Assembly: GCA_964429695.1 (NCBI GenBank)
Contig: CAYSCS010000003.1
Location: 6,704-70,703, forward strand
From: an uncultured Eubacteriales bacterium
GTDB lineage: Bacteria > Acidobacteriota > Aminicenantia > Aminicenantales > Aminicenantaceae
Length of the DNA: 64,000 nt
Direction of reading: 5' to 3'
The translations under genes were made by a program, and so were the position numbers. This document shows positions 15,451-34,706 of this stretch, piece by piece. How positions within the stretch are numbered: the first letter of the stretch is position 1; the number at the start of each line of letters is the position of its first letter. The notes under the pieces were generated by a model, which had not been told where the DNA came from, did no database searches, and was given only the letters and a program-made list of their open reading frames with translations.

Positions 15451-15455
15451 AAAAC

Positions 15456-19065: not shown

Positions 19066-19124
19066 AAAAGAATACGTATCAAAAAAATCCAATCATCTGC
19101 CGTGCTCCGTCATTATAGGGTGAA

Positions 19125-20246: not shown

Positions 20247-20291
20247 TTCTTAAAAGATAAAGGAGATATAGTTTCAGTCTCAAAGGTCAAG

Positions 20292-22442
20292 GTGAGAAAG
20301 TTAATCCCTCCCTTTTTCTTGGGGTTTATTGCCCTCTCTTTTCAGGTATTACTCCTTAGAGAGTTCTTCGCCTATTTTTATGGAAATGAAATCACATCTG
20401 GAATTCTCTTGGGAACATGGCTTTTCTGGGGAGGTATAGGAAGCATCCTAGCCTCAAGAATAAAATTTAGGCCTGAGATATTACCCCTGATGTATTACTT
20501 CACTATCCTTCTCTTCCTTTTTTGTCTTGCAGGGCTGAGGTTTTCGCGCCTTATTCTCAATATTCTGCCCGGGGAATTGACAGGAACAACAACCATTCTC
20601 ATTTATTCAACCTTGCTTTCGCTGCTCATAAGCTTTCCCCTAGGGATGCTCTTTGTCTTCAACACAAGGCTTCTTGAAGGTAATGTTTCGGAAGTTTATT
20701 TTCTAGAGAGTTTAGGTTCGGCTCTAGCCGGAACTTTCGTCTCTCTTTTTTTTGTCCCCACCTTCTCCAATTGGGAAAGCACCGCCCTAATAGGAGCCTT
20801 ATCTTCAATCTTTATTTTCCTTTCCTCAAGAAAAAGAAAACATATCTTCCTTCTCTTACCTCTTTTGATCTTCTTGGCTCTCTTCAGCCTTTTTGATTTC
20901 AAGAGTGAGAAATTATACTGGAACCCTTTCAACCTGATTCAAAGTAAAGACACACCATATGGCAAGCTTCAACTCATAAAAACAGAAGAACAAATTTCCC
21001 TTTACAACAACTCCCTTCTCGAATATTCATACCCTGACCTTCTGGCTGCAGAAGAATCTGTTCATTTCGCCCTTCTTCAGCTCCCTGAGGCTAGGAAGAT
21101 TCTTCTTCTAGGAGGGGGAGCTGGAGGGGGTTTAAAGCAGGTTTTAAAATATCCTCAAGCAGAAGTGGATTATGTTGAAATCGACCCTGAAATCATTCGT
21201 TTTTCTCTGCGCCATCTCCCTCCTGAAGAAAGAAAATCAATCCAAGCACCCCGAGTGAAAGTCTTTTATCAAGACGGAAGAGCCTTTTTAAAAAAAGTAA
21301 GAAAAAAATATGATGCGATAGTTCTCAACCTGCCTGAACCAGCTACGGCTCAGATAAATCGCTTCTACACAAAAGAATTCTTCCAAGAGGCAAGAAAAAA
21401 GCTTTCTTCAGAGGGAATCCTCTCTCTTCGTCTCCCTTCGGCTGAAGATTACATAAGCAGGGAAAGAGGCGATTTTCTTTCAGTCCTCTACCATACTCTA
21501 AAAGAGGTTTTTCCTCATCTTGAAGTAATCCCTGGGGGTACGAATATCTTTCTTGCTTCCTCGCGACCTTTAATCTCAGATGCAGAATCATTCGCTCAAG
21601 CTATGGAGAAGTTAAATCTTCAAAATACATTCATCACCCGCCATTTCCTCCTCTCACGCTTGAGCCCCTTGCGCAAGAAAACTTTAGAAGATTCTATGTT
21701 TTCTCGAGAAAAAAAGATAAATCGAGACCTAACCCCCATAAGCTACTTCTTCAACAATGTGCTCTGGGGAACCCAGTTCAGAGGCATAGAAGGGAAAATT
21801 TTCACTTACCTTTCTCGAATCTCAAGGTTTTGGCTTTTAGATTTCCCCTTAATAATTTTTCTGCTTCTCCTTTCCTGGTTCTGGCAGGGGAGAAAAAGGG
21901 CCTCCTTCTTACTAACCCCCTTAGCTCTCATGGGATTCAGCACTATCACTTTTGAAATCATCGTCCTCATTTCCTTCCAAACCAAATACGGGTATCTTTA
22001 TCAGAGGATAGCACTCCTTCTTGCAAGTTTTATGGCAGGGCTTTCCCTGGGTGCCTTAAGAGGCATGAAGAGGAAAAAAATCTATTTTCCCCTCCTCCCT
22101 CTCATTCAATTTGGGTTTGTTCTCATTTTTTCTTTCTATTCCCTTCTTCTCAATTCCCATCCTCCAGAAACATTTTTCTTTTTAGCCCTAATCCTCATTG
22201 GCTATTTCGGGGGCGACCTGTTTATCATCTCTAACTCGCTCTTCCTTAGAGGGAGTTCAAATTATGGCCTGGGATACGGGCTCGACCTCCTCGGCGCTTT
22301 CTTGGGGGCGCTGGTGTGTTCTTCCCTACTGATACCTCTCCTTGGGCTTCCAATCCTTCTCCGTTATCTTATTCTTATTAATTCATTCTGCGTTCTCTTT
22401 CTCATCTTGGGAATGTGGCGTTTTAAATTCGAAAAAATTTAG
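20292..22442 (+). CDS. Polytopic membrane protein with a central spermidine-synthase-like (aminopropyltransferase-fold) domain.
   Basis: There are about 6 predicted TM helices at the N-terminus and several at the C-terminus. The central soluble domain reads ILLLGGGAGGGLKQVLKYPQAEVDYVEIDPEIIRF...DAIVLNLPEP, the SpeE-type SAM/dcSAM-binding pattern. Confidence 0.75.
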   Translation: MRKLIPPFFLGFIALSFQVLLLREFFAYFYGNEITSGILLGTWLFWGGIGSILASRIKFRPEILPLMYYFTILLFLFCLAGLRFSRLILNILPGELTGTTTILIYSTLLSLLISFPLGMLFVFNTRLLEGNVSEVYFLESLGSALAGTFVSLFFVPTFSNWESTALIGALSSIFIFLSSRKRKHIFLLLPLLIFLALFSLFDFKSEKLYWNPFNLIQSKDTPYGKLQLIKTEEQISLYNNSLLEYSYPDLLAAEESVHFALLQLPEARKILLLGGGAGGGLKQVLKYPQAEVDYVEIDPEIIRFSLRHLPPEERKSIQAPRVKVFYQDGRAFLKKVRKKYDAIVLNLPEPATAQINRFYTKEFFQEARKKLSSEGILSLRLPSAEDYISRERGDFLSVLYHTLKEVFPHLEVIPGGTNIFLASSRPLISDAESFAQAMEKLNLQNTFITRHFLLSRLSPLRKKTLEDSMFSREKKINRDLTPISYFFNNVLWGTQFRGIEGKIFTYLSRISRFWLLDFPLIIFLLLLSWFWQGRKRASFLLTPLALMGFSTITFEIIVLISFQTKYGYLYQRIALLLASFMAGLSLGALRGMKRKKIYFPLLPLIQFGFVLIFSFYSLLLNSHPPETFFFLALILIGYFGGDLFIISNSLFLRGSSNYGLGYGLDLLGAFLGALVCSSLLIPLLGLPILLRYLILINSFCVLFLILGMWRFKFEKI

Positions 22443-22463: not shown

Positions 22464-22492
22464 TTGACACTCTTTTGAAATTGTGCTTTACT
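22464..22492 (+). promoter_or_regulatory. Candidate sigma70-like promoter upstream of hdrC.
   Basis: The sequence is TTGACA-N17-TTTACT, sitting about 80 nt upstream of the first gene of the 13-gene cluster. The -10 hexamer is weak. Confidence 0.3.
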
Positions 22493-22569
22493 TAAAGGTA
22501 AATTTTTCTGATTTACAAATCCTATAGCGATAATAGGTTTTTAAAACCAGCGCAAAAAGAGATTATTAG

Positions 22570-22977
22570 ATGAGAATTAACTTATCCCAAAAAAAAATAA
22601 GAAATCCATTAGTCCAAAAAGTCCAGGAACTCAGCGGCCAAAACCTTCTTGCCTGCTACCAGTGTGGAAAATGCTCTGCTGGGTGCCCAGCTATCTCTGA
22701 GATGGATATTCTCCCTAACCAGATTATTCGTTATGCTCAACTAGGCCTGAGCGATGAGCTTTTAAGGTCGAAAGCGATCTGGATCTGCGCTTCATGTTTC
22801 ACCTGCAACGCTCGTTGTCCAAAGGGGATTAATATAGCTGAAGTAATAGAAGCCTTGAGACAGATACTCCTCCGCAAGAGGGAGGACCACGTTAAAATTG
22901 AAAAACTCTCTGAGAAGGAAAAGAAAGAAGTCCCTCCCATTGCCCTCATCAGCAGTTTTAGAAAGTTTACTTCCTAA
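22570..22977 (+). CDS. hdrC: Heterodisulfide reductase subunit C-like protein with two [4Fe-4S] clusters.
   Basis: The two cluster motifs are CYQCGKCSAGCP and CASCFTCNARCP. Size and context match HdrC. Confidence 0.8.
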   Translation: MRINLSQKKIRNPLVQKVQELSGQNLLACYQCGKCSAGCPAISEMDILPNQIIRYAQLGLSDELLRSKAIWICASCFTCNARCPKGINIAEVIEALRQILLRKREDHVKIEKLSEKEKKEVPPIALISSFRKFTS

Positions 22978-23037
22978 CGAGAAGCGGGTGTATGGAAAAA
23001 GAAATCATTAATTATTTAATTAAAATAAGGTCTAATA

Positions 23038-23916
23038 ATGAAAATAAGTTATTATCCTGGCTGTACCCTGAAGAACCATGCAAAAAATTTTGAAGATTCA
23101 ACCCTTTGTGCCCTAAAAGCTCTAGGCATAGAAGTCGAAGAACTGCGGCGTTGGAACTGTTGTGGAACAGTTTTTTCCTTAGCCACGGATGATTTAATTC
23201 ATCATCTGGCTCCCATCCGAAACCTCATCAGAGTCAAGGAATCTAATTCTAACCGAGTAATGACCCTCTGCGCCATGTGCTACAATACCTTGAAAAGAGC
23301 GAATGAAAGACTCAAGCAAGACCCAGTAAGCCTCGAAAAAATTAACAAATTCATGTACCTAGAGAAAATCGATTATGAAGGAGATGTGAAAATCTTTCAT
23401 CTTCTAGAATTTTTGAGAGATGAGATAAGCTTCGAGAATATTAAGAAGAAAGTAATTAAGCCCCTGAATAATCTGAAAGTAGCGAATTATTATGGATGTC
23501 TCCTGATAAGACCCAAAGAAATAGGCTTCGATGATGTTGAAAATCCTGTGATAATGGAGAATTTAATGCTTTCCCTGGGCGCTACACCCATAGATTTTCC
23601 TTACAAAACAGAGTGCTGTGCAGCCTATCAGACTGTTGACAAACCAGAAATTGTGGCAGAGAGAACCTTCCAGATCATCACTGCGGCACGGCTCCACGGA
23701 GCTGAAGTCCTAGCAGTGAGCTGTCCTCTCTGCGCCTTCAACCTCGACCAAAGGCAGAAAAAAACCCTGGAGAAATATCCTGATTTTAAAATTACCCCAG
23801 TCCTTTATTTCACGCAGCTCATGGCCATAGCACTCGGTTGCAAGGAAAATGAACTGAGATTAGACCTCCATTATATAGACCCTAAGCCTATTCTTGAAGA
23901 AAAAGGTCTGATATGA
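23038..23916 (+). CDS. hdrB: Heterodisulfide reductase subunit B-like protein with two CCG domains.
   Basis: WNCCGT..., YYGCLL... and ECCAAY are the hallmark CCG-domain Cys patterns. Confidence 0.85.
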   Translation: MKISYYPGCTLKNHAKNFEDSTLCALKALGIEVEELRRWNCCGTVFSLATDDLIHHLAPIRNLIRVKESNSNRVMTLCAMCYNTLKRANERLKQDPVSLEKINKFMYLEKIDYEGDVKIFHLLEFLRDEISFENIKKKVIKPLNNLKVANYYGCLLIRPKEIGFDDVENPVIMENLMLSLGATPIDFPYKTECCAAYQTVDKPEIVAERTFQIITAARLHGAEVLAVSCPLCAFNLDQRQKKTLEKYPDFKITPVLYFTQLMAIALGCKENELRLDLHYIDPKPILEEKGLI

Positions 23917-23923
23917 GGCTCAA

Positions 23924-24199
23924 ATGATTTACTTTGGAGATTTAAAAGAGAAAAAGGGAAAAATCCATATCAACAGGGATAGATGCAAAGGATGCGGATT
24001 TTGTGTGGAATATTGCCCTAGAGATGTGCTCGAAATGTCAGACGAATTCAACATCAAAGGATATCATCCTCCCTTTGTCAAAAACGAGGAAAAATGCCTC
24101 TATTGTCAACTTTGCGAGGCAATATGTCCTGAATTTGCCATATTTGTGACTCTCAAGAAAGAGGAGGAAGAAGGTGAAAAAGGTGAAAGCCGACCCTAA
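23924..24199 (+). CDS. korD: 2-oxoacid:ferredoxin oxidoreductase delta subunit (2x[4Fe-4S] ferredoxin).
   Basis: It is 91 aa with the motifs CKGCGFCVEYCP and CLYCQLCEAICP, immediately upstream of the alpha, beta and gamma subunits. Confidence 0.7.
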   Translation: MIYFGDLKEKKGKIHINRDRCKGCGFCVEYCPRDVLEMSDEFNIKGYHPPFVKNEEKCLYCQLCEAICPEFAIFVTLKKEEEEGEKGESRP

Positions 24200-25340
24200 G
24201 GGAGTCTTAACAGGCTCACATTACTTAGACGGAGATTATGCCATCGCCGAAGGAGCCCTTGCTGCAGGTTGTCGCTTTTTTGCTGGTTATCCTATTACTC
24301 CCTCCACTGAGACGGCTGAACGGTTTGCCGAAAGGATTCCGATGGTGGGAGGGATTTTCATTCAGATGGAAGACGAAATTGCCTCCATAGCAGCCCTGAT
24401 TGGAGCAGTATGGGGCGGGATGAAAGCTATGACGGTGACCTCAGGACCAGGATTCTCGTTAATGATGGAGAACATAGGGCTCGCCTGTATGCTGGAAACC
24501 CCTCTTGTCATCGCCAATGTCCAGAGAGGAGGACCCTCCACCGGGCTTCCTACTCTTACCGGGCAGCAGGACATGATGCAAGTAAGATGGGGTTCCCACG
24601 GTGACTATGAAATAATTGCACTTTCTCCTGATTCCCCTCAGGAATGCTTCGACCTTACCATAAAAGCTTTCAATCTTTCTGAAATGTACAGGGTGCCAAC
24701 CTTCATCATGACCGATGAATGTGTGGGGCACATGCATGAGAAGGTAGTCATCCCTCCTGCTGAAGAAATAGAGCTTGTAGAAAGGAAATGGTACACCGGC
24801 CCCAAGGATAAATATCTTCCTTTTAAACCTGATAAAGATATGATTCCTTTCATGGTTAAAGTAGGGGAAGGTTATCGCTTTCACATCACAGGACTCACCC
24901 ATGATGAGAGAGGCTATCCAGTGATTAATGCCGAATGCCAGAATAAATGTGTCCCTCACTTGGTGGATAAAATAAAGCTCAATGCAGAAAAAATAATCGA
25001 GTTTCAAGAAGATGAAACCGATGACGCAGAGGTTGTTGTGGTCTCCTATGGGATAACTTCTCGGGTTTCTATAAGAGCCGTTCAACAAGCCCGAAAAGCA
25101 GGCATAAAGGTAGGAACACTGAGGTTGATTACTGTCTGGCCTTTCCCTGAAAGAAGAATAAGAGAGCTAGCAGGAAAAATAAAGGCCTTTGTGGTTCCAG
25201 AAATCAACTATGGTCAAATGGTCTATGAAGTAGAAAGATGCGCCGCAGGTAAAGCTTCTGTGTACCATGTACCCCACTGCGGTGGTTGGGTTCACGACCC
25301 CAAAGATATTTTCAAGGTTATCAAGGAGGCAGCAAAATGA
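24174..25340 (+). CDS. korA: 2-oxoacid:ferredoxin oxidoreductase alpha subunit.
   Basis: This 388-aa protein has the POR/KOR alpha fold signature (GYPITPSTE, GFSLMMENIGLACMLETPLV). It overlaps the delta and beta genes. Confidence 0.85.
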   Translation: MKKVKADPKGVLTGSHYLDGDYAIAEGALAAGCRFFAGYPITPSTETAERFAERIPMVGGIFIQMEDEIASIAALIGAVWGGMKAMTVTSGPGFSLMMENIGLACMLETPLVIANVQRGGPSTGLPTLTGQQDMMQVRWGSHGDYEIIALSPDSPQECFDLTIKAFNLSEMYRVPTFIMTDECVGHMHEKVVIPPAEEIELVERKWYTGPKDKYLPFKPDKDMIPFMVKVGEGYRFHITGLTHDERGYPVINAECQNKCVPHLVDKIKLNAEKIIEFQEDETDDAEVVVVSYGITSRVSIRAVQQARKAGIKVGTLRLITVWPFPERRIRELAGKIKAFVVPEINYGQMVYEVERCAAGKASVYHVPHCGGWVHDPKDIFKVIKEAAK

Positions 25341-26209
25341 AAGAAGAAGATCGCCTCGAAGAAAGAAATCCAATTGAAGATTTCCTCAGGATGGACAGAA
25401 TTCCCCATATTTGGTGTCCGGGCTGCGGGATTGGAACTGTTGTCAGCTCCTTTGCTGAAGCGCTTCGCAAGAGCAAGCTTAATCTGGATAAAGTAGCCAT
25501 TCTTTCGGGAATCGGGTGCACAGGCCGGGTGGCTGGATACGTCAAACTCGACTCCATCCACACCACCCATGGCCGAGCCATTCCTGTAGCCACAGGAGTG
25601 AAGCTGGCGAATCCTGAGCTCAAGGTTGTTGTCTTTAGTGGAGACGGAGACATAGTAGGAATTGGAGGAAACCATTTCATTCACGCAGCAAGGAGAAACA
25701 TGGACCTCATCGTCATCTGTGTCAATAATTTCAATTACGCGATGACAGGAGGACAGGTAGCAGCTACGACTCCCATCTTAGCCAATCTTTCCACAGCACC
25801 TTACGGGAATTTCGAATATCCCTTCAATCTCCCCTATCTCGCCGAGGCTTCAGGTGCTACCTATGTGGCTCGCTGGACAGCACTCCACTTAAGACGAGTG
25901 ACCAAATCCATTCAAGAAGCCTTGGAACACAGAGGCTTTTCCTTTATAGAGGTCATCACTCCCTGTGTGACCCTTTATGCAAGAAGAAACCGGCTTGGGG
26001 ATGGGCTGAATCTTCTCAAATACTACTATGAGAATTCAGAAATACAACACGGAGCAGATACGCGTACTCTGGATATTTCCTACCAGGGGAAAATCATCGT
26101 GGGTAAATTCGTCCACAAGCAAAAGCCCACTTTCCTTGATTGTATGAATGAGCATCTCTCCAAAGTGTTGGGAAATAAATATAAACCCTATGGAGTAAGC
26201 CATGACTGA
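25337..26209 (+). CDS. korB: 2-oxoacid:ferredoxin oxidoreductase beta subunit (TPP-binding).
   Basis: WCPGCGIG is near the N-terminus, and the TPP motif GCTGRV...VVFSGDGD is present. I prefer the Met at 25337 (RBS AAGGAGG, ATGA overlap with the korA stop) to the longer 25286 track ORF. Confidence 0.85.
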   Translation: MKEEDRLEERNPIEDFLRMDRIPHIWCPGCGIGTVVSSFAEALRKSKLNLDKVAILSGIGCTGRVAGYVKLDSIHTTHGRAIPVATGVKLANPELKVVVFSGDGDIVGIGGNHFIHAARRNMDLIVICVNNFNYAMTGGQVAATTPILANLSTAPYGNFEYPFNLPYLAEASGATYVARWTALHLRRVTKSIQEALEHRGFSFIEVITPCVTLYARRNRLGDGLNLLKYYYENSEIQHGADTRTLDISYQGKIIVGKFVHKQKPTFLDCMNEHLSKVLGNKYKPYGVSHD

Positions 26210-26792
26210 GATAAGGTTTTCAGGTTTTGGAGGACAGGGAATAATTCGCTGTGGCTTGATAGCCGGAAAGGCACTTTCTCTCTTCGATAATAAGCATGCC
26301 ACAATGACTCAAAGCTTCGGTCCTGAGGCAAGGGGAAGTGCATGTAGCTCTCAGCTTGTCGTCTCTGAGGACCGTGTCCTTTATCCTTACATCACCAGAC
26401 CTGAAATCCTCGTAGCCATGTCTCAGGAAGCCTATGATAAATATGAGCCAGAGCTTCGAGAAGGAGGTATTCTAATCATAGACAGGGACCTAGTTAAACC
26501 CAAGGCCTCCAAGAGAAATATCAAGATTTATTCCATACCTTCCACTCGTTTTGCTGAAGAACTTGGTAACCGCATCATAGCTAACTTAGTCATGCTTGGG
26601 TTTTTCACTGCAATCACAGGGGTTGTCTCTCCAGAGGCCATGAAAAAGGCCCTTCCTGGACTTGTTCCCCAAAGATTTCTCGACCTTAACATCAAAGCGT
26701 TTGAAAAAGGTTACGATTATGGAATGGAAGTCCTCGCCGCAGAGAAGGACACGGAAAAGAAATCTCAGAAGAAAGAAAAGCCTCAGACCTGA
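26202..26792 (+). CDS. korC: 2-oxoacid:ferredoxin oxidoreductase gamma subunit.
   Basis: This 196-aa protein has a POR/KOR gamma-like N-terminus, IRFSGFGGQGIIRCGLIAGKA. Confidence 0.8.
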   Translation: MTEIRFSGFGGQGIIRCGLIAGKALSLFDNKHATMTQSFGPEARGSACSSQLVVSEDRVLYPYITRPEILVAMSQEAYDKYEPELREGGILIIDRDLVKPKASKRNIKIYSIPSTRFAEELGNRIIANLVMLGFFTAITGVVSPEAMKKALPGLVPQRFLDLNIKAFEKGYDYGMEVLAAEKDTEKKSQKKEKPQT

Positions 26793-26806
26793 GGGAGAGG
26801 ATTAAG

Positions 26807-28753
26807 ATGAGGAGAACTGGAGTATTTGTTTGTCATTGTGGAATAAACATCGCAGGAACAGTAGATGTTAAAAAGGTAGCCAAAGAGCTCTCCACCCATC
26901 CCAATGTGGTTCATTCTGAAGACTACGTTTATATGTGTTCTGACCCCGGCCAAAACTTAATCAGCAATGCCATTAAACAAAAAAAACTCGATAGCGTAGT
27001 GGTCGCCTGCTGTTCCCCTACCCTTCACGAATCAACCTTCAGAAACTGCGTTAAATCAGCCGGAGTAAATCCTTTCCATTGTGAAATAGCAAATATTCGT
27101 GAACAATGCAGCTGGGTCCATAAAGAGATGGAAAAGGCGACAAGTAAGGCCATAAAAATAACTAGAAGCACCGTGGAGAAAGTGACGCGCAACGAGCCCC
27201 TTGAACCAATAAGTGTCCCAGTGACCAAAAGGGCACTGGTAATTGGAGGAGGAATCGCAGGTATTCAGGCCTCGCTCGACCTTGCTAACAGCGGTTTCGA
27301 GGTTGTTCTTGTCGAAAGGTCACCCTCCATTGGAGGGCACATGATCCAGCTCTCAGAAACATTTCCTACCCTTGATTGTTCTCAATGCATCCTGACACCA
27401 AAGATGGTGGAAGTCGCCAAACATCCTAAGATAAAACTAATGACCTACAGTGAGGTTCAGGAAGTCTCGGGATATGTAGGAAACTTCAGGGTCAAAATAC
27501 TCAAGAAACCCACCTACGTGGATCCCGATAAATGTACCCTCTGCGATGAATGTACTAAAGTCTGCCCTGTAGTCACAGAAAATGAATTCGACTTAGGCCT
27601 CACTGGCCGTCGCGCCATATATATCCCATTTCCTCAGGCCATCCCTGCCTCTTATACCTTGGACATAAACTCCTGCCCCGGTCTTTTGCCCATTGCTTGT
27701 GGAAAGTGTGCCGATGTCTGTGAGCCAAAAGCCATAGATTACGACATGAAGCCAAAAATCATAGAAATGGATTTTGGGGCCATAATTGTCGCTACCGGTT
27801 ACGACCTCTATGGAAAGGAAAACATGGCAGAATACGGTTATGGAAAGTACCCTGATGTCATAGATGGCCTTCAATTCGAGAGACTCTGTTCTGCTTCAGG
27901 CCCAACGAAAGGAAAAATTCTCCGCCCTTCTGATCATAAAGAACCCAAAGAAGTAGTCTTCATTCAGTGTGTAGGCTCTCGCGACCCTGAAATGCATTGC
28001 TCCTATTGCTCAAAGATTTGCTGCATGTACACGGCGAAACATGCCATGCTCTATAAGCATCATGTTCCAGATGGCCAGGCTTATATCTTCTACATAGACA
28101 TAAGGTCTGGGGGGAAGGGGTATGAAGAGTTTGTTCAGAGGGCAGTGGAAGAAGATAGTGTCCTGTATCTTCGCGGTAAAGTCTCCAAAATATTTGAAGA
28201 AAGAGGAAAGATAAGGGTCTGGGGCGTAGACACCTTATCCGGAAAAGACATCGAAATAGACGCCGACATGGTGGTTCTGGCCATGGCCATGAGACCCTCA
28301 AAAGGAGCAGAAGAATTAGCCAAGAAACTAAAGATTGCGCTGGATAAGGATGGTTTTCTTGCCGAGGCCCATCCCAAACTAAGACCTGTGGAAAGTGTTA
28401 CCTCTGGGGTTTTCCTCGCTGGCGCAGCCCAAGCTCCTAAAGATATTCCAGAGGCCGTTGCTCAAGCAAGCGGCGCAGCCTCAAAGGCAATAGCCATATT
28501 ATCCCAGGAAAGGCTATTCCATTCTCCCACTGTGGCCAAAGTCAACACAAATCTCTGCACAGGTTGTGGAATGTGCGTCTCTGTATGTCCCTATGAAGCC
28601 CTCTCCCTTAAAGATGGAAAGGTGGAAGTAAAAGAAGTTCTTTGCGAAGGATGTGGAACATGTTCAGCAACATGCCTGAGGGCAGCGATTCAGGTAAAAA
28701 ACCTGACGCCAAGACAAGTCTACGATATGATTAACGCCTCCCTCGGAGGATGA
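26807..28753 (+). CDS. hdrA: Heterodisulfide reductase subunit A-like flavo-iron-sulfur protein.
   Basis: It has the typical HdrA start MRRTGVFVCHCGINIAGTVD, the FAD motif VIGGGIAGIQASLDLA, several CxxCxxCxxxCP clusters and the inserted ferredoxin domain. Confidence 0.9.
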   Translation: MRRTGVFVCHCGINIAGTVDVKKVAKELSTHPNVVHSEDYVYMCSDPGQNLISNAIKQKKLDSVVVACCSPTLHESTFRNCVKSAGVNPFHCEIANIREQCSWVHKEMEKATSKAIKITRSTVEKVTRNEPLEPISVPVTKRALVIGGGIAGIQASLDLANSGFEVVLVERSPSIGGHMIQLSETFPTLDCSQCILTPKMVEVAKHPKIKLMTYSEVQEVSGYVGNFRVKILKKPTYVDPDKCTLCDECTKVCPVVTENEFDLGLTGRRAIYIPFPQAIPASYTLDINSCPGLLPIACGKCADVCEPKAIDYDMKPKIIEMDFGAIIVATGYDLYGKENMAEYGYGKYPDVIDGLQFERLCSASGPTKGKILRPSDHKEPKEVVFIQCVGSRDPEMHCSYCSKICCMYTAKHAMLYKHHVPDGQAYIFYIDIRSGGKGYEEFVQRAVEEDSVLYLRGKVSKIFEERGKIRVWGVDTLSGKDIEIDADMVVLAMAMRPSKGAEELAKKLKIALDKDGFLAEAHPKLRPVESVTSGVFLAGAAQAPKDIPEAVAQASGAASKAIAILSQERLFHSPTVAKVNTNLCTGCGMCVSVCPYEALSLKDGKVEVKEVLCEGCGTCSATCLRAAIQVKNLTPRQVYDMINASLGG

Positions 28754-29178
28754 AGATGAGAGAAGATTTTGAGCCAAAAATTATGGCATTCCTCTGCAAA
28801 TGGTGTTCCTCGGCAGGAAGTGACCTCGCTGGAGTCTCTCGGATGGAATATCCGCCCAACGCAGTCCCAATTACTGTGATGTGCTCGGGAAGTGTCTCAC
28901 CCCTATACATTTTCAATGCCTTCAAAAGAGGGGCAGATGGAGTGCTTGTCTCAGGTTGTCATCCTGGTGATTGCCATTATATAAAAGGAAACTATTATGC
29001 ACGCCGAAGAATAGCCCTCGTGAAGAAACTCCTTGAATTCATAGGCCTTGAACCCCAGAGGTTCCAAATGTCTTGGGTTTCCGCAGCTGAAGGCCTCAAG
29101 TATACCCAGATAATCAAGGACTTCGTAAAAGAAATAAAACCCCTTGGACCCCAAACTAAGCTGAGGAGAGAAAAGTAA
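28750..29178 (+). CDS. mvhD: MvhD/FlxD-like protein (methyl-viologen-reducing hydrogenase delta-subunit family).
   Basis: MAFLCKWCSSAG...MCSGSVSPLYIFNAFKRGADGVLVSGCHPGDCHY is the canonical MvhD motif set. Confidence 0.85.
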   Translation: MKMREDFEPKIMAFLCKWCSSAGSDLAGVSRMEYPPNAVPITVMCSGSVSPLYIFNAFKRGADGVLVSGCHPGDCHYIKGNYYARRRIALVKKLLEFIGLEPQRFQMSWVSAAEGLKYTQIIKDFVKEIKPLGPQTKLRREK

Positions 29179-30209
29179 TGGTTAATCCTGAGGAACTTAA
29201 AAATGAAGCCAAGAAAGCACTGAAAGAAGGGAAAGTAAAATACATCATCGGATATAGAAAAAAACCAGAAGAATCAATGGCTACCCCAGCCTTCATCAGG
29301 AGAGCCGAAGATTCAGAAATTCTTATTTGGGATCCAACGTGCGTTCACAATCTAGTTCGATTCCTGAGTGATGAGAAGAGGAGAAGAAAGAGAGAAAAAA
29401 ACCCTGAACAAAGGCCTGTGGGGATAGTGATAAAAGGCTGCGACAGCCGGGCGATAAACGTGCTTCTCCAGGAGAAATTCATAGCCCGAGAAGATGTTTA
29501 CCTCATCGGCATTTCCTGTGAGGACAATGGAGTTATAGATGAGAAAAAATTACGAAAAAAACTAAACGGGAGAAAAGCCAAAAGAGTCGATTTCAAAGAA
29601 GGACAAGAATTAATCATCGAAACTGAGGAAGGCAAAATTTTCCTTCCTGCCAAGGAAATCCTCGCTGAAAGATGTCTTGAATGCAAAGTTAATTTCCCCA
29701 TAGTATACGATGTTCTTTTAGGGGATAAAACAAAGCGAAAGCCAGAGAAAGAATTCGCTTCAGTTGAAAAATTCGATTCACTCTCAACCTCCCAAAAATG
29801 GGATTTCTGGAAGAATCAACTCGAGAAGTGTATCCGCTGCTATGCTTGCCGGTCTGTTTGTCCCATGTGCTACTGCGATGAATGTGTAGTGGACACCATA
29901 AGCTTTGCCGTGAGCGCGGATACAACGGCAGAGGAAAAGGCAAATAAAATTAAATGGATAGAAAAATCTCCAGTCCTCTCGGAAAACATTGTCTATCATA
30001 TGGTCAGAGCAATCCATCTTGCGGGTCGATGCGTTGACTGCGGAGAGTGCGAAAGAGCATGCCCTGTAAACATCCCCTTGCGTCTTTTGAATAATAAAAT
30101 GGAAAAAGAAGCCAAAGAGCTCTTCGGGTATGAAGCAGGTCTTGATTCTCAACAACCATCCCTCGTTGCCTGTTTCAGAGATGAGGACCCGCAAGATTTT
30201 ATCAGGTAA
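29178..30209 (+). CDS. Fe-S oxidoreductase subunit, AsrA/HydB (sulfhydrogenase-beta)/FlxC-like.
   Basis: CIRCYACRSVCPMCYCDEC and CVDCGECERACP are two [4Fe-4S] motifs whose spacing matches the AsrA/HydB family. It is a paralog of the next gene. Confidence 0.55.
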   Translation: MVNPEELKNEAKKALKEGKVKYIIGYRKKPEESMATPAFIRRAEDSEILIWDPTCVHNLVRFLSDEKRRRKREKNPEQRPVGIVIKGCDSRAINVLLQEKFIAREDVYLIGISCEDNGVIDEKKLRKKLNGRKAKRVDFKEGQELIIETEEGKIFLPAKEILAERCLECKVNFPIVYDVLLGDKTKRKPEKEFASVEKFDSLSTSQKWDFWKNQLEKCIRCYACRSVCPMCYCDECVVDTISFAVSADTTAEEKANKIKWIEKSPVLSENIVYHMVRAIHLAGRCVDCGECERACPVNIPLRLLNNKMEKEAKELFGYEAGLDSQQPSLVACFRDEDPQDFIR

Positions 30210-30214
30210 GAAAG

Positions 30215-31255
30215 ATGGATAAAGTACTCCACAAAAAGGCGTTACCTAAATGGCTTAAAGAACTTGAATCATACGAAATCTATGCTCCTCAAGAAAATGA
30301 TGACCTCTGGAGCTTTGAGTTAGTCAAGTCCTTTGAATTCTTGGATTCAAATTATTCAAACTGCATCCAGTCCCCAAAAAAAATAATCTTCCCTCAAACA
30401 GAGACCCTGCTCAAGTTTGAGAGATTAGAAAATGGAAAGCTCGAGGTTGAAGAACAATTACCAGAAGACAGAAAAAAAGTCATCTTTGGAGTAAGACCTT
30501 GTGACGCAAAAGCACTCACTCTCATGGATAAGGTCTTCACAGGAGATTTCGAAGACCTATATTACACAAAGAGAAGAAACCAGACCACTCTAGTTGGGCT
30601 AGGTTGTAATACTCCCCCCTCTCCACAGTGTTTCTGTGTTTCTGTCGGTGGCTCACCCCATTCGAATGAAGGGCTTGATATTCTGATGACTGACCTTGAA
30701 GATAAATATTACCTTCAATCATTTACCGCTAAAGGCAATGAACTCTTGATCCTGGGAAAGAATATTTTCGAGGAACCGAACCCAGATGAAAAAAGCATGC
30801 TTAAGCGCATTCATCAGGAAGCAAAGAATAAATTCAAAACTAAGCTCCGTGAAATTGAAAAAATACCGGATAAATTAAAAGGAATGTTTGACTCTTCCTT
30901 CTGGGATGAGGAGGCCATGAGTTGCATCCGTTGCGGAATATGTACATATCTCTGTCCTACCTGCCACTGTTTTGATATAAATGATGAAGTTTACTCTACT
31001 TCTTCCCTGAGAGGAAAGCGCATCAGAACCTGGGATACATGCCAGTTCCCTGATTTCACTATGCACTCTTCTGGGCATAATCCACGGCCTGACAAGGCAT
31101 CCCGGCTAAGACAGAGGATTTTTCATAAGTTCCAGTATTTTGTGGAGAAGTTCAATGCCTACCAATGTACAGGGTGCGGAAGATGCATCTCCAAATGCCC
31201 GGTAGGTATAGACATAACCGAAATTCTGGAAAAGGTGAAAAATTATGGCTCATAA
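30215..31255 (+). CDS. Fe-S oxidoreductase subunit, AsrA/HydB/FlxB-like.
   Basis: CIRCGICTYLCPTCHCFD and CTGCGRCISKCPVG are present. The length of about 345 aa is typical of AsrA/HydB. It overlaps the next gene by 11 nt. Confidence 0.6.
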   Translation: MDKVLHKKALPKWLKELESYEIYAPQENDDLWSFELVKSFEFLDSNYSNCIQSPKKIIFPQTETLLKFERLENGKLEVEEQLPEDRKKVIFGVRPCDAKALTLMDKVFTGDFEDLYYTKRRNQTTLVGLGCNTPPSPQCFCVSVGGSPHSNEGLDILMTDLEDKYYLQSFTAKGNELLILGKNIFEEPNPDEKSMLKRIHQEAKNKFKTKLREIEKIPDKLKGMFDSSFWDEEAMSCIRCGICTYLCPTCHCFDINDEVYSTSSLRGKRIRTWDTCQFPDFTMHSSGHNPRPDKASRLRQRIFHKFQYFVEKFNAYQCTGCGRCISKCPVGIDITEILEKVKNYGS

Positions 31256-32069
31256 CCCATACATTCCGAGGCTGGCAAGAATAATTGAAATTAAAGAGGA
31301 AGTAGGCGGCACAAGACCAATCAAAACCTTCAGAACCAAGTTTCTCAACGAAGATGGCTTCTCCTTCCGATGTGGCCAATGCGCCATGCTTTCTGTCTTC
31401 GGCAAAGGAGAATCAATGATCTCCATTTCATCCAGCCCTCTTGAGAAGGAATTTATTCAGTTCAGTGTCCTGAAAATGGGAAGAGTGACCACGGCGCTTC
31501 ATGAGATGGAGGTAGGAGATATCATTGGAATAAGAGGGCCTTATGGGAATGGTTTTCCGATAGAAGAATGGAAGGGGAAAAATCTTATTTTCATCGGCGG
31601 TGGAATCGGACTGGCTCCCATCTGGTCAGTTTTACAAACGGCCCTGGCAAAGAAAGAAGAATATGGAGAGCTGATGCTCATCTACGGAGCCAGAACTTCC
31701 CGAGATTTAGTTTTTAAAAAAGAATTAGAGGAATTAAAAAGAGAGATCAAAGTCCACCTTTCAATCGACGTGGAGGAGCCTGGATGGAAGGAGTATGTTG
31801 GTTTTGTTCCCCTCAACGTGCTTGACAAAAAACCATCGCCAAATAACGCAATTACCGTCACTTGCGGTCCACCAATCATGATTAAATTTGTTATAAAAAA
31901 TCTTCAAGCTCTAGGTTTCCAGGACGATCAAATTTATACTACAGTAGAAAATAAGATGAAGTGTGGAATAGGAAAATGTGGACGATGTAATATAGGGGTT
32001 AATTATGTTTGTAAGGATGGCCCTGTCTATTCTTGGGCTGTGCTAAAAAAACTTCCTCAGGAATATTAG
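31245..32069 (+). CDS. FAD/NAD(P)-binding oxidoreductase with a C-terminal [2Fe-2S] cluster (HydG/AsrB/FlxA/PyrK-like).
   Basis: It has an FNR-like fold (RPIKTF...FRCGQCAMLSV; GGGIGLAPI NAD motif) and a C-terminal CGIGKCGRCNIG cluster. Confidence 0.75.
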   Translation: MAHNPYIPRLARIIEIKEEVGGTRPIKTFRTKFLNEDGFSFRCGQCAMLSVFGKGESMISISSSPLEKEFIQFSVLKMGRVTTALHEMEVGDIIGIRGPYGNGFPIEEWKGKNLIFIGGGIGLAPIWSVLQTALAKKEEYGELMLIYGARTSRDLVFKKELEELKREIKVHLSIDVEEPGWKEYVGFVPLNVLDKKPSPNNAITVTCGPPIMIKFVIKNLQALGFQDDQIYTTVENKMKCGIGKCGRCNIGVNYVCKDGPVYSWAVLKKLPQEY

Positions 32070-32085
32070 AAGAAAGGAGAAAAAA

Positions 32086-32820
32086 ATGGAAGAAAAGAAA
32101 CCTAAGCCAGCTCAAAAACAGAAATACACACCGCTAAAAAATGAAGAAAAAAGAGAATTTGTAACCGTGTTCATCATGGGTAAAGCCTATAAAGTCCCGG
32201 CCGATGCCACAATCATGGGAGCCATCGAATACGCGGGATATCAAATAAAAAGAGGGGCAGGGTGTCGCGAAGGTTTCTGCGGAGCCTGCGCAACTGTTTT
32301 CCGACTTCCCGGAGATTTCAAGATTTATACAGGACTCGCCTGTACCACTCTCGTCAAAGAAGGCATGTGGCTCTCTCAGCTTCCTGCCATCCCTGACAGA
32401 CGCGCCACCTATGACATAAATAAGCTCGTGCCCAGTGTGGTCACCTTCCAGATCCTCTACCCAGAAATTTTTCGCTGCGTCGCCTGTAATACTTGCACTA
32501 AAGCTTGCCCCCAGAACCTAGAAGTCATGGATTATATCCAAGCTGCAATGAGAGGTGATATCGAAAAAGTGATGGACCTTTCCTTTGACTGTCTCTGCTG
32601 CGGGCTATGCGCCATCCGCTGTCCAGCAGAGATAGTCCAATATAATGTGGGGATTCTCGCTAAAAGGCTTTATGGAAAGTATCTTTCAAAGAAAAGCCTT
32701 CAACTTGAAAAAAGAATAAAAGAAATTCAGAAAGGAATTTATGACAAAGAATATAAAAAATTGATGCTTATGAGCAAAGAAGAGCTTAAAAAATTATATT
32801 ATGAAAGAGACATTGAATGA
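32086..32820 (+). CDS. Succinate dehydrogenase / fumarate reductase iron-sulfur subunit-like protein.
   Basis: The N-terminal [2Fe-2S] motif is CREGFCGACATVF. Downstream are CVACNTCTKACP and CLCCGLCAIRCP, the SdhB/FrdB cluster arrangement. Confidence 0.75.
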   Translation: MEEKKPKPAQKQKYTPLKNEEKREFVTVFIMGKAYKVPADATIMGAIEYAGYQIKRGAGCREGFCGACATVFRLPGDFKIYTGLACTTLVKEGMWLSQLPAIPDRRATYDINKLVPSVVTFQILYPEIFRCVACNTCTKACPQNLEVMDYIQAAMRGDIEKVMDLSFDCLCCGLCAIRCPAEIVQYNVGILAKRLYGKYLSKKSLQLEKRIKEIQKGIYDKEYKKLMLMSKEELKKLYYERDIE

Positions 32821-32863
32821 GGAACGAAGAAGAAAAAAAACTTTTAACTTTAAGGAGTAACAA

Positions 32864-34531
32864 ATGTACCCAGAATACATGAGGCCATCCCTAGAAAAAG
32901 TTGCCCAAACTCGCCCCAAGAGGTTTGAGCTCGAAAAATCAGGAAAACCAGTTTTTCCTCCCATGAAAGCCGAAGAAAGAGAAGAGGTTCTCAAGAAATT
33001 TCATCCCGATTATAAACCCGATGCCAGGCGAAAGATTCGCATCGGAGTAAATAATGGAGAAGAAATAACCACAGAAGTGGCAGATATGCTGGAATCACAC
33101 TCGAGAATAAAGCCTGAGCTATTTAACCTTACCAATCCTGATTTTGAAACGGATATTCTAATCATTGGAGGAGGCGGCGCAGGATGTGCAGCAGCCATAA
33201 TCGCCATGCAGAACAAGGCAAAATCAATCATCTCCACAAAACTGCGCCTAGGAGATGCGAATTCGATGATGTCACAGGGAGGGATGCAAGCCGCTGTTAC
33301 TGAACAGGACTCCCCTACCCGCCATTATCTGGATGCAATGGGAGGTGGCCATTTTGACAACAAACCTGAACTCGTAAGAGCCTTGACAGAGGATGGCCCT
33401 GAAGTTGTTAAATGGCTTGAAGAGCTGGGTGTAATCTGGGATAAATATGAAGATGGCTCTCTCCAGGTCCTCCATGGGGGAGGAACATCCAGAAAAAGAA
33501 TGCACTCCTGCCGCGATTATACGGGAGCAATAATCATGCGCACGCTGATGGATGAAGTAAGAAACCACCCTGATATGATTCGCGTCTTGGAATTCATGCC
33601 CACAGTTGAGCTTATCATGGACAAGAGAGGCAGATGCGCGGGAGGTGTTCTCTATAATCTGGAGACAGAGGAATATTTTACGGTCAAGGCCAAGGCAGTC
33701 ATCATCGCTACAGGAGGATACGGAAGGCTTCACATCCGCGGCTTTGACACCACCAACCACTACGGGGCAACTGGAGATGGGCTTGTCATTGCTTACCGCG
33801 CCGGGGCAAAGCTACTCTACATGGACTCAGTTCAATATCATCCTACGGGAGCAGTCTTCCCTGAACAGATTGCCGGTTTTTTAATCACCGAAAAAATCAG
33901 AGGAGCAGGGGGGCAACCAATAAATAAATTCGGTGAACTTTTTGTCTTCCCTCGGGAACCAAGGGATGTTGAGAGTGCGGCTATCATCAGGGAATGCGTA
34001 GAACGAAAAAACGGAATTGAAACCCCAAGCGGCCGCGTGGGTGTCTGGCTGGATTCCCCCCTAATTGAAATGATTCAAGGCGAGGGATACATAAATAAAC
34101 AATTCCCGGCTATGCATCGCCAATTCATTCGCTATGGGATTGATATAACTAAAGAGCCGATGCTCATCTATCCCTCCCTCCATTACCAGAATGGGGGAAT
34201 CGAGATTAATGAAAGATGCGAAACCAACATTCCCGGTCTCTACGTTGCTGGAGAAGCCTCAGGAGGAGTCCATGGCCGTAATCGACTGATGGGAAATTCG
34301 GTTCTTGACTACAATGTGTTTGGAAGAAGAGCGGGTAAATATGCAGCAGAATACATAAAATCAGTCAAGATAGGAACCTTGACCCTTGAGCATGTAAATG
34401 CGTATGAACAGGAATTGAAAAAAGCAGGGATTAAAACAGATAGAATCGCACCTGTCCTTCTTCCCTCTTATACGCCCGAGGATGTGAGAAGACGACAGCT
34501 CACGGCTCACTATGAAGGAACGCTGAGATAG
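32864..34531 (+). CDS. Fumarate reductase / succinate dehydrogenase / L-aspartate oxidase-family flavoprotein subunit.
   Basis: The FAD motif is ILIIGGGGAGCAAAI. There is no His at the covalent-FAD position (SQGGMQAAV). The conserved LHYQNGGIEI...GLYVAGEASGGVHGRNRLMGNSVLD block is present. An unusual roughly 100-aa N-terminal extension precedes the FAD motif. Confidence 0.8.
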   Translation: MYPEYMRPSLEKVAQTRPKRFELEKSGKPVFPPMKAEEREEVLKKFHPDYKPDARRKIRIGVNNGEEITTEVADMLESHSRIKPELFNLTNPDFETDILIIGGGGAGCAAAIIAMQNKAKSIISTKLRLGDANSMMSQGGMQAAVTEQDSPTRHYLDAMGGGHFDNKPELVRALTEDGPEVVKWLEELGVIWDKYEDGSLQVLHGGGTSRKRMHSCRDYTGAIIMRTLMDEVRNHPDMIRVLEFMPTVELIMDKRGRCAGGVLYNLETEEYFTVKAKAVIIATGGYGRLHIRGFDTTNHYGATGDGLVIAYRAGAKLLYMDSVQYHPTGAVFPEQIAGFLITEKIRGAGGQPINKFGELFVFPREPRDVESAAIIRECVERKNGIETPSGRVGVWLDSPLIEMIQGEGYINKQFPAMHRQFIRYGIDITKEPMLIYPSLHYQNGGIEINERCETNIPGLYVAGEASGGVHGRNRLMGNSVLDYNVFGRRAGKYAAEYIKSVKIGTLTLEHVNAYEQELKKAGIKTDRIAPVLLPSYTPEDVRRRQLTAHYEGTLR

Positions 34532-34706
34532 GAAGACGAGGTTTCCCCCTCCTCAAAAGGAGACATCCTGAAGAAAACAAAAGAACCTCTTCCTTTGACC
34601 GTGAGGGCCAGAGCCTCTCTCTCTTTTTGACTTTTTGGAAAAATTGTTATATCTAATAAAATAGTTTAGTTTACTATTCCCTCTTGTAAAGGGTGGGAGG
34701 CTTTAA

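Follow-up and report, generated by a model that had tools for sequence, protein, structure and literature searches.

We analyzed a 64,000-nucleotide stretch of contig CAYSCS010000003.1 (assembly GCA_964429695.1, placed in Aminicenantaceae by GTDB), hereafter called the window, for a redox gene cluster at positions 22570-34531. Thirteen consecutive open reading frames (ORFs), all on the plus strand, were found there in the order hdrC-hdrB-korD-korA-korB-korC-hdrA-flxD-flxC-flxB-flxA-frdB-frdA. A first-pass annotation had listed 13 co-directional genes running from hdrC to an SdhA-like flavoprotein. The coordinates agreed, and all 13 assignments were borne out by Pfam and NCBIfam scans. Cofactor motifs and catalytic residues are unbroken across the block. 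The features are summarized in Table 1.

Table 1 Features of the redox operon and of its surroundings in the window.
Feature	Position	Strand	Length	Remarks
hdrC-like, 2x[4Fe-4S]	22570..22977	+	135 aa	Fer4_8/17; two CxxCxxCxxxCP motifs
hdrB-like, two CCG domains	23038..23916	+	292 aa	PF02754 x2
korD, delta subunit, 2x[4Fe-4S]	23924..24199	+	91 aa	two CxxCxxCxxxCP motifs
korA, alpha subunit	24174..25340	+	388 aa	POR_N 236.5 bits; PFOR_II
korB, thiamine diphosphate-binding beta subunit	25337..26209	+	290 aa	TPP_enzyme_C; GDG-x25-NN thiamine diphosphate motif
korC, gamma subunit	26202..26792	+	196 aa	PF01558 121 bits
hdrA, FAD and multiple [4Fe-4S], presumed bifurcating flavoprotein	26807..28753	+	648 aa	HdrA2 model 844 bits
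flxD/mvhD-like [2Fe-2S] adaptor	28750..29178	+	142 aa	PF02662 FlpD 174.8 bits; VhuD 113 bits
flxC-like Fe-S protein	29178..30209	+	343 aa	Fer4 families only; two CxxCxxCxxxCP motifs
flxB-like Fe-S protein (AsrA/HydB family)	30215..31255	+	346 aa	Fer4_22 116 bits; ShyB/HydB/AsrA 165-201 bits
flxA-like NAD(P)H/FAD protein, C-terminal [2Fe-2S]	31245..32069	+	274 aa	NAD_binding_1, FAD_binding_6, DHODB_Fe-S_bind; HydG/AsrB-like
frdB/tfrB-N-like Fe-S subunit, [2Fe-2S] and 2x[4Fe-4S]	32086..32820	+	244 aa	Fer2, Fer4_9; partial TfrB match
frdA/tfrA-like flavoprotein	32864..34531	+	555 aa	FAD_binding_2 263 bits
Promoter-like sites	22464..22504	+		TTGACA-17-TTTACT, also TTGAAA-18-TAAATT; consensus match; within the 127-nt gap 5′ of hdrC
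Terminator-like hairpin	34603..34628	+		GAGGGC-CAGA-GCCTCTC then T-run; consensus match; 72 nt past the frdA stop
Large PAS/histidine-kinase/receiver hybrid, then receiver-GGDEF diguanylate cyclase	12070-16376	+		upstream of the operon
DUF362 protein, radical SAM protein, protein with central spermidine-synthase-like methyltransferase domain	18172-22442	+	716 aa (last protein)	directly upstream of the operon
PilZ-domain gene	34707-35138	+		175-nt gap 3′ of the operon; kept on the identical Logan contig
Aldo/keto reductase fused to C-terminal 2x[4Fe-4S] ferredoxin domain	55510-56718	+		beside a DHDPS-family gene
Large bacterial signal recognition particle RNA; two tRNA-Ser (GCT, TGA)	56720-56987; 50937-51268	-	256 positions (particle RNA)	201.7 bits (particle RNA); tRNAs upstream of serS

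The 13 genes likely constitute one operon and are co-transcribed, as their arrangement indicates. The intergenic distances from 5′ to 3′ were 60, 7, −26, −4, −8, 14, −4, −1, 5, −11, 16, and 43 nt, with a maximum gap of 60 nt, and GGAG-like ribosome-binding sites precede most of the 13 starts. This single-operon appearance had also been noted in the first-pass annotation. The start codon of korB is most likely ATG 25337, which gives the 290-aa call made on an identical contig of a JGI metagenome, rather than the mechanically assigned TTG 25286. Consensus scans for promoters and terminators over the region returned counts at the level of shuffled controls (27 vs 23.4 ± 4.1 and 25 vs 21.1 ± 4.3, respectively), and thus neither split nor prove the operon. 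The plus-strand terminator-like matches inside the block (23143, 25286, 30624, 31371, and 32278) each lie within coding sequence, and an Rfam scan of the block matched no family.

We compared the Hdr and Flx subunits with NCBIfam models and solved structures. The best match of HdrC was HdrC TIGR03290 (85.9 bits, below the cut-off of 160). HdrB keeps all ten cysteines of its CCG motifs (C9-x31-CC-x35-CxxC and C154-x38-CC-x34-CxxC), domains which we take to hold the ligands of non-cubane [4Fe-4S] clusters. It scored 174.7 bits against HdrB TIGR03288 and 163 bits against SdhE, both below cut-off, and matched the solved HdrB chains over its full length (118-140 bits). Residues 3-642 of HdrA, which has a GGGIAG motif and 32 cysteines, matched the HdrA chain of the solved MvhAGD-HdrABC complex (5odc_A) at 738.6 bits. 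FlxB matched the beta subunit of sulfhydrogenase I (9nez_B) at 172.8 bits. FlxC, for which the NCBIfam scan gave no match, is a distant paralogue of FlxB with 21% identity. FlxA carries the [2Fe-2S] ligand motif C240-x4-C-x2-C-x7-C.

The kor genes encode a complete four-subunit enzyme, comprising alpha, beta, gamma, and delta subunits with the thiamine diphosphate motif and Fe-S ligands. The best NCBIfam matches of KorD (OGOR_delta, 74.4 bits, below the cut-off of 125) and KorB (2-oxoglutarate ferredoxin oxidoreductase beta subunit, 235 bits, below the cut-off of 364) are 2-oxoglutarate families. KorA passed a cut-off only for a generic model, NF006412, of the alpha subunit of 2-oxoacid:acceptor oxidoreductases (568.8 bits vs 411), and KorC scored 207 bits against NF006323, below the cut-off of 235.

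The last two genes encode an Fe-S subunit and a fumarate-reductase-like flavoprotein. FrdB has a [2Fe-2S] motif and two four-cysteine motifs, is without a CCG domain, and is weakly similar to SdhB (E 2e-5). The best NCBIfam match of the flavoprotein was TfrA, a subunit of the fumarate reductase that uses coenzyme M (CoM) and coenzyme B (CoB), at 354.3 bits against a cut-off of 718 and over model positions 6-426 of 546. In the fused TfrB model (cut-off 385), successive stretches were matched by FrdB with 33.6 bits, by HdrC with 36.0 bits, and by HdrB with 42.6 bits. By these matches, the three proteins look like a split, diverged TfrB. A natural fusion protein of 727 aa (P0122) was found, in which the N-terminal 220 residues correspond to the Fe-S subunit and the remainder to the flavoprotein, providing Rosetta-stone evidence that the products of frdB and frdA form one enzyme.

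Alignment to E. coli FrdA showed that the catalytic residues are kept in the flavoprotein, in the motifs HPT (His232), LITE (Thr244), PRD (Arg287), LHY (His355), and GRNRL (Arg390). The equivalents of these residues are invariant throughout the family. L-aspartate oxidase has them too, and the residues alone do not rule out that activity. The existence of a dedicated Fe-S partner, the natural fusion protein, and the fumarase and sucCD neighbors described below led us to reject this enzyme as the main identity of the flavoprotein. His44 of E. coli FrdA, the site of covalent FAD attachment, is replaced by Asn in the window flavoprotein. Non-covalent FAD goes with one-way fumarate reduction, as in His44 mutants of FrdA and in soluble fumarate reductases. 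Thus, the Asn favors one-way fumarate reduction.

The flavoprotein begins with an extension of approximately 95 aa (window positions 32864-33150), which is conserved in the family and contains FHPDY and G-x-N-x-GE motifs. No Pfam or NCBIfam family matched it, and it is not present in TfrA, SdhA, or NadB. It may dock the flavoprotein to HdrB or FrdB. An AlphaFold2 model built from a 25-sequence alignment (mean predicted local distance difference test score 59.8) was too poor for analysis of the extension or a fold search, and was not used. At the other end of the protein, the Pfam scan gave no match to Succ_DH_flav_C (PF02910). No gene for a membrane subunit was seen in the ORF list or the Pfam scans of the block. 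A canonical membrane-bound SdhABCD/FrdABCD (complex II) was rejected, as the covalent-FAD histidine, the C-terminal domain, and the anchor genes are absent; the third cluster motif of FrdB, also compared with canonical complex II, has four cysteines.

Conservation of the gene neighborhood was studied from the flavoprotein outward. A first homologue search was dominated by near-identical Aminicenantes proteins, with more than 100 homologues at 86-90% identity, the named ones being from Candidatus Aminicenantes; a search of representatives reached other phyla, with full-length members down to about 40% identity. The family alignment (A1) was then used to scan one genome per GTDB species, giving at least 597 relatives, of which the best 80 loci were kept. 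Neighboring genes were identified with the 13 proteins of the operon as tblastn queries, at E ≤ 1e-8 and a coverage of 50% or more. As the flanks end at 10 kb, the counts are lower bounds, and full context refers to the 27 loci with at least 9 kb on both sides.

The related loci span more than 15 bacterial and archaeal phyla. Bacterial hosts are Aminicenantes, Gallionellales/Nitrosomonadales, Rhodomicrobiaceae, Ignavibacteria, Cloacimonadota, Neomarinimicrobiota, WOR-3, Thermodesulfobacteriota, Chloroflexota, Bacillota, Spirochaetota, Nitrospirales, and Fibrobacterota; archaeal hosts are Thermoplasmata, Theionarchaea, Bathyarchaeota, and Borrarchaeota. frdB lies by frdA in 79-80 of the 80 loci and in all 27 full-context loci. 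The corresponding numbers are 62 and 23 for at least one hdr gene, 40 and 18 for hdrA with mvhD/flxD, 24 and 15 for korDABC (in at least five different gene orders), and 18 and 10 for flxCBA. The order hdrCB-korDABC-hdrA-flxDCBA-frdBA is that of Aminicenantes. It becomes frdBA-hdrCB-korDABC-hdrA-flxDCB(A) in Gallionellales, korDABC-hdrCB-hdrA-mvhD-frdBA in Cloacimonadota, korDABC-hdrA-mvhD-(mvhGA)-hdrCB-frdBA in Thermoplasmata, hdrCB-hdrA-flxDCBA-frdBA-(sucCD)-korDABC in Thermodesulfobacteriota, and hdrBC-hdrA-flxDCBA-frdBA in Clostridia, with hdrCB-frdBA as the minimal form.

Adjacency that is kept through repeated rearrangement is strong evidence of a functional link among Hdr/Flx, Kor, and the Frd-like pair, as the first-pass annotation had supposed. 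The neighborhood comparison that it proposed could have pointed to chance had relatives consistently been without the Kor or Frd-like genes, and the counts given above are not of that kind. Chance adjacency of unrelated redox genes is effectively refuted. Nothing speaks for it beyond promoter-like matches inside the block at chance frequency. Against it stand the tight spacing and overlaps, the linkage in several rearranged orders across phyla, the congruent trees of frdA, korA, and hdrA described below, and co-expression of the orthologous cluster (PMC11636981).

The neighbors in relatives also bear on the pathway. Unassigned ORFs of eight loci were scanned against Pfam, and a tblastn census was then made. 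The cluster adjoins fumarase in 17 of the 80 loci, succinyl-CoA synthetase (sucCD) in 19, and isocitrate dehydrogenase (IDH) with aconitase in 4. In one thermodesulfobacterial locus (L051), the order fumAB-hdrCB-hdrA-flxDCBA-frdBA-sucCD-korDABC follows, step by step, the reductive path that leads from malate to 2-oxoglutarate, which supports fumarate as the substrate of the flavoprotein. An Oscillospiraceae locus (L080) has mdh and fumC upstream and an Asp-Al_Ex-type permease, a putative dicarboxylate exporter, downstream. Such neighbors, for example sucCD between frdBA and kor in L051, support succinyl-CoA and 2-oxoglutarate as the likely Kor substrates. Coupling to 2-oxoacid oxidation, as first worded, is unlikely in view of the fumarase upstream and of sucCD between frdBA and kor, since these neighbors indicate the reductive sequence fumarate → succinate → succinyl-CoA → 2-oxoglutarate.

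The electron-input genes varied among the loci. MvhAG-type [NiFe] hydrogenase genes replace flxCBA in 12 of the 80 loci (L021, L023, L025, L027, L029, L032, L037, L053, L064, L068, L070, and L079). Loci that lack flxCBA and have MvhG/MvhA inside or beside the cluster point to H2-driven and NAD(P)H-driven versions of the module. The electron-input module, FlxABC or Mvh, is thus exchangeable around a constant HdrA-MvhD core, and swapping of this kind is typical of HdrA-MvhD complexes.

From these data, we consider it reasonably probable that the products of the operon are two enzymes which cooperate in the reductive branch of the tricarboxylic acid (TCA) cycle, namely an HdrA-based bifurcating fumarate reductase and a ferredoxin-using KorDABC. 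We infer the electron path, the bifurcation, the nucleotide used, the subunit contacts, and the direction of Kor as follows. The first enzyme would be a soluble complex of FlxABCD-HdrABC with the Fe-S/flavoprotein pair. NAD(P)H would be oxidized at FlxA (FAD, [2Fe-2S]), and from there FlxB/FlxC and the MvhD-like FlxD would relay electrons to the HdrA FAD, where each pair would be split. The high-potential electron would travel through HdrC/HdrB and the Fe-S subunit to the non-covalent FAD of the flavoprotein and reduce fumarate to succinate; the low-potential electron would leave through the ferredoxin domains of HdrA to ferredoxin. The net reaction would be 2 NAD(P)H + fumarate + Fd(ox) → 2 NAD(P)+ + succinate + Fd(red). 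Textbook potentials are −320 mV for NADH, about +30 mV for fumarate/succinate, and about −450 mV for ferredoxin, by which this reaction is exergonic. The second enzyme, KorDABC, would use reduced ferredoxin to carboxylate succinyl-CoA to 2-oxoglutarate. Possible roles are glutamate biosynthesis, succinate fermentation, or a full reductive TCA (rTCA) cycle if the genome has citrate cleavage.

Several points weigh against this interpretation. Co-transcription is deduced from spacing and overlaps only, and the 2-oxoglutarate specificity of Kor leans on context and on the names of best matches below cut-off. The flavoprotein falls under the TfrA cut-off, carries an unexplained N-terminal extension, and misses the C-terminal domain. 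No TCA gene, be it fumarase, sucCD, citrate lyase, or another, is present in the window, which does not set the physiological direction. Many relatives hold only hdrCB-frdBA without hdrA (for example, L036, L044, L048, and L081). An Aminicenantes metagenome-assembled genome (MAG), Zod_Metabat.480, has hdrCB-korDABC-hdrA-flxD-frdBA without flxC, flxB, and flxA (L009), and no hydrogenase was found within the flanks of this locus. These hdrA-less relatives and L009 indicate that the Frd/HdrBC core can function without bifurcation or with other partners. Our literature search found no purified, assayed, or biochemically characterized bifurcating fumarate reductase of this kind.

A soluble NAD(P)H:fumarate reductase that does not bifurcate, with HdrA and the Fe-S subunits serving merely as a wire and Kor merely co-regulated, is very unlikely in our estimation. 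NADH-dependent fumarate reduction alone is strongly exergonic, and Hydrogenobacter thermophilus provides a precedent with its NADH-dependent fumarate reductase, a soluble and irreversible enzyme of five subunits (Miura et al. 2008, as described in PMC13147460). On the other hand, the HdrA of the window is full-length, still has the ferredoxin-type domains, and shows the tight linkage to MvhD that all characterized bifurcating Hdr complexes have. The swapping of Flx and Mvh inputs around the constant core and the repeated adjacency of a ferredoxin-consuming Kor also argue against it.

The position of korDABC between hdrB and hdrA, in Aminicenantes as in proteobacterial clusters, and the match of the kor history with that of frdA and hdrA would fit a supercomplex of all 13 subunits, the stronger form of the proposals made in the first-pass annotation and by Rubin-Blum et al. 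(2019). Kor would then be docked on Hdr/Flx/Frd and would receive the low-potential electron of HdrA directly at KorD/KorB, with no free ferredoxin. We regard this as unlikely. Elsewhere, kor is placed before or after the hdr and frd genes or is missing altogether, as in 12 of the 27 full-context loci and in the Clostridia-type clusters. Such varying placement between phyla indicates that the interspersion is lineage-specific. Moreover, KorD has the make-up of an ordinary delta subunit (2x[4Fe-4S]) and lacks any additional docking domain, no Kor-Hdr or Kor-Frd fusion was seen, and four-subunit Kor enzymes are normally partnered by free ferredoxin. Similarly doubtful is the wider proposal of a single megacomplex that has Kor wired to the low-potential exit of HdrA, with an Aminicenantes-type operon or a close relative as the source from which sulfur-oxidizing Proteobacteria acquired their rTCA module laterally. 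If it were true, the fixation of CO2 onto succinyl-CoA would be driven directly by NAD(P)H oxidation together with the reduction of fumarate, with no free ferredoxin in between.

The TfrB-like features of the cluster bear on another scheme, a thiol shuttle. FlxABCD-HdrABC would reduce ferredoxin and a disulfide carrier, DsrC-like or a small heterodisulfide, and the Frd pair would act as a thiol:fumarate reductase that re-oxidizes the thiol. TfrAB uses CoM-SH and CoB-SH as thiols. Both CCG motifs of HdrB are kept, frdB, hdrC, and hdrB are collinear with parts of the fused TfrB model, the minimal hdrCB-frdBA clusters resemble a split TfrAB, and the scheme has been proposed in the literature (PMC6315080, PMC11636981). 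We nevertheless judge it improbable. There is a single HdrBC pair and FrdB is without a CCG domain; one and the same HdrB would need to make and to consume the thiol. The block has no carrier gene, and CoM/CoB would be unexpected in these bacteria. SdhE of type-E succinate dehydrogenases is a CCG protein that serves Sdh/Frd without thiol chemistry, and the window HdrB scores nearly equally against SdhE and HdrB.

The two-enzyme interpretation is also supported by a common history of the genes. Neighbor-joining trees of frdA, korA, and hdrA, built without bootstrap support, agree on the main clades. In all three trees, Aminicenantes are sister to a proteobacterial clade, followed by Cloacimonadota, Thermoplasmata, and Anaerolineae. 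The per-gene identity to the window tracks that of frdA, and for korA (r = 0.83) and korC (r = 0.92) it does so even with Aminicenantes excluded. The congruent trees and covarying identities indicate that the block behaves as one heritable, transferable unit. For every gene, the nearest relatives outside Aminicenantes among the best 80 loci were Proteobacteria of Gallionellales, Nitrosomonadales, and Sulfuricellaceae type (L011-L015 and L017), with identities of 73-76% for frdA and 68-72% for korA. Per-gene identity to the Gallionellales loci was 42-76%, with 75% for frdA, 68% for korA, about 69% for hdrA, and about 66% for flxD. This pattern suggests lateral transfer of the whole cluster between an Aminicenantes-like lineage and Proteobacteria, in either direction, and such a lineage could be the 'distant bacterial clade' postulated as donor by Rubin-Blum et al.

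Some relatives showed further arrangements. Four loci from Rhodomicrobiaceae, alphaproteobacterial, and Ignavibacteria genomes (L016, L018, L019, and L020) have idh-acnB-frdB-frdA(-hdrC) followed by unrelated genes. This reduced version is without hdrB, hdrA, kor, and flx and is still tied to TCA genes. In Thermodesulfobacteriota (L051, L054, L055, L058, and L062), a second, more canonical sdhA-like gene lies 3′ of korDABC (at about 17.2-20.8 kb in L051), accompanied in L051 by an sdhB of Fer2_3 type and a CCG gene that resembles hdrB/SdhE. The extra sdh genes may represent a type-E-like SdhABE beside the bifurcating-type cluster. Two MAGs labeled 'uncultured Eubacteriales bacterium' (L005 and L007) have the full Aminicenantes-type operon at 85-87% identity and fall inside the Aminicenantes clade; their taxonomic labels are probably wrong.

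Identical contigs were found in one JGI metagenome and one Logan assembly. The rest of the window is occupied by housekeeping genes, including lnt, prfB, ribF, pyrB/C, rnc, glyQS, gcvPHT, argS, an ABC transporter, serS, and dapA. tblastn of the window with fumarase, sucCD, mdh, idh, acn, and mvh queries, which did not include ATP-citrate lyase, gave no match. The operon is not part of an rTCA island: no ATP-citrate lyase (for which no tblastn query was used), aconitase, IDH, rubrerythrin, pntAB, or rnf gene was seen nearby. The genes directly upstream, 127 nt from hdrC, are probably a separate unit. Genes for cyclic di-GMP signaling lie on both sides of the redox operon. An aldo/keto reductase with a ferredoxin domain and RNA genes lie further downstream (Table 1).

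Aminicenantes are an abundant, uncultured subsurface phylum and are regarded as fermentative. The same operon is nearly universal and strongly conserved in the phylum and lies outside any rTCA island. If the proposal is true, a bifurcating fumarate reductase would supply a missing piece of anaerobic bioenergetics: the large free-energy drop from NADH to fumarate would be recovered as reduced ferredoxin. This would explain how the carboxylation of succinyl-CoA, energetically the hardest step of the reductive TCA branch, is paid for. Many phyla of bacteria and archaea have the module, in which NAD(P)H and H2 inputs are exchangeable. The hypothesis is already in the literature; the window broadens the range of candidate organisms for biochemical proof and leaves the concept unchanged.

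The first-pass annotation knew of no described system that combines these modules. This claim did not hold, as the same combination has been published. Rubin-Blum et al. (2019; PMC6315080) reported frdBA-hdrCB-korDABC-hdrA-flxDCBA in tubeworm symbionts and Chromatiaceae. The genes of their expression table run frdB, frdA, hdrC, hdrB, korD, korA, korB, korC, hdrA, flxD, flxC, flxB, flxA, aclB, aclA, and idh, and they proposed a complex that passes electrons to 2-oxoglutarate:ferredoxin oxidoreductase (OGOR) and fumarate reductase. Mitchell et al. (2024; PMC11636981) found the cluster co-expressed in Endoriftia, tfrAB excepted, and a 2026 survey (PMC13147460) repeated the bifurcation hypothesis. 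Variants are described in Cloacimonadota 'Ca. Celaenobacter', with TFR, OGOR, fumarase, succinyl-CoA synthetase, Mvh, and Hdr (Williams et al. 2021; PMC8542988), in Bipolaricaulia UBA7950, with OGOR, Hdr-Flx, and TfrAB (2023 preprint; bioRxiv 10.1101/2023.11.26.568696), and in Pseudoclostridium thermosuccinogenes (PMC7282089). No paper on this operon in Aminicenantes was found in our literature search.

Gene content and sequence identify the window block as orthologous to the published 'Hdr-Flx / KorABCD / TfrAB' cluster. The cluster of the tubeworm symbionts (Ca. Endoriftia and the Escarpia symbiont), of Thioflavicoccus mobilis, and of related Proteobacteria agrees with the window in its 13 gene families, in the internal order hdrC-hdrB-korDABC-hdrA-flxDCBA, and in the proposed function. 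The insertion of korDABC between hdrCB and hdrA-flxDCBA is shared by the window, supplementary file 2 of PMC6315080, three proteobacterial loci (L011, L013, and L014), and a proteobacterial contig (P0292), which carries idh, acn, aclBA, frdBA, rubrerythrin, hdrCB, korDABC, hdrA, and flxDCBA. Proteobacterial orthology was judged on Gallionellales loci rather than on the named published organisms, which were not retrieved; Chromatiaceae (Thiodictyon) homologues were also found. In contrast to the symbiont cluster, which has frdBA at the 5′ end within an rTCA island of a sulfur-oxidizing autotroph, the window operon has frdBA at the 3′ end and stands alone among housekeeping genes in a presumed fermentative host. 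The host phylum, the free-standing context, and the position of frdBA are what is new; the combination itself had been described.

The operon of P. thermosuccinogenes, hdrBC-hdrA-flxDCBA-frdBA, resembles the window in its proposed NADH-dependent, ferredoxin-reducing fumarate reductase, a bifurcating Flx-Hdr-fumarate reductase suggested in a 2019 preprint by Koendjbiharie and van Kranenburg (as cited in PMC7282089). It differs, as far as described there, in being without kor, carrying fumarase, and serving succinate fermentation; this Flx-Hdr-Frd 'succinate operon' is up-regulated at CO2 limitation (PMC7282089). Clostridial and Oscillospiraceae loci (L065 and L080) have the same architecture, with proteins 47-56% identical to those of the window. 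The Cloacimonadota and Bipolaricaulia clusters likewise bring together Kor, HdrABC, MvhD, and the Frd pair. In Cloacimonadota (korDABC-hdrCB-hdrA-mvhD-frdBA in L023, L029, and L033), the gene order is different and the input is a group 3c [NiFe] hydrogenase, with MvhAG directly downstream, not FlxABC.

All seven subunit families of FlxABCD-HdrABC, the NADH dehydrogenase/heterodisulfide reductase of Desulfovibrio vulgaris, with their cofactor motifs, are present in the window. FlxA has FAD/NAD(P) and [2Fe-2S] features, FlxB and FlxC are paralogues, and FlxD is MvhD-like. HdrA is full-length, HdrB has two complete CCG motifs, and HdrC has 2x[4Fe-4S], although the methanogen-built NCBIfam equivalog cut-offs were not reached. 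The D. vulgaris genes, as reported in PMC6315080 and PMC7282089 (Ramos et al. 2015), are contiguous as flxABCD-hdrABC, with a linked alcohol dehydrogenase and DsrC as the proposed acceptor. In the window, kor interrupts the series of hdr and flx genes, to which a fumarate-reductase pair is joined, and the block has no dsrC-like gene.

TfrAB works together with a four-subunit Kor in the reductive pathway leading to 2-oxoglutarate, as is proposed for the window pair. It is also soluble, TfrA is the best match of the window flavoprotein, and FrdB, HdrC, and HdrB are collinear with the fused TfrB. None of the window scores comes near its equivalog cut-off (354 vs 718 and 34-43 vs 385), and the window flavoprotein has the extra N-terminal segment of about 95 aa and is without the C-terminal stretch of about 120 model positions. 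The window subunits are separate genes, whereas TfrB is one polypeptide with [2Fe-2S], [4Fe-4S], and CCG domains; the TfrAB in question is that of Methanothermobacter (Heim et al. 1998, as cited in PMC6315080). Finally, HdrA, HdrB, HdrC, and MvhD are full-length homologues of those in the MvhAGD-HdrABC complex of methanogens (5odc). Unlike in that complex, the predicted donor in the window is an NAD(P)H module, not a hydrogenase, and the proposed acceptor is fumarate, reached through the Fe-S/flavoprotein pair, not CoM-S-S-CoB.

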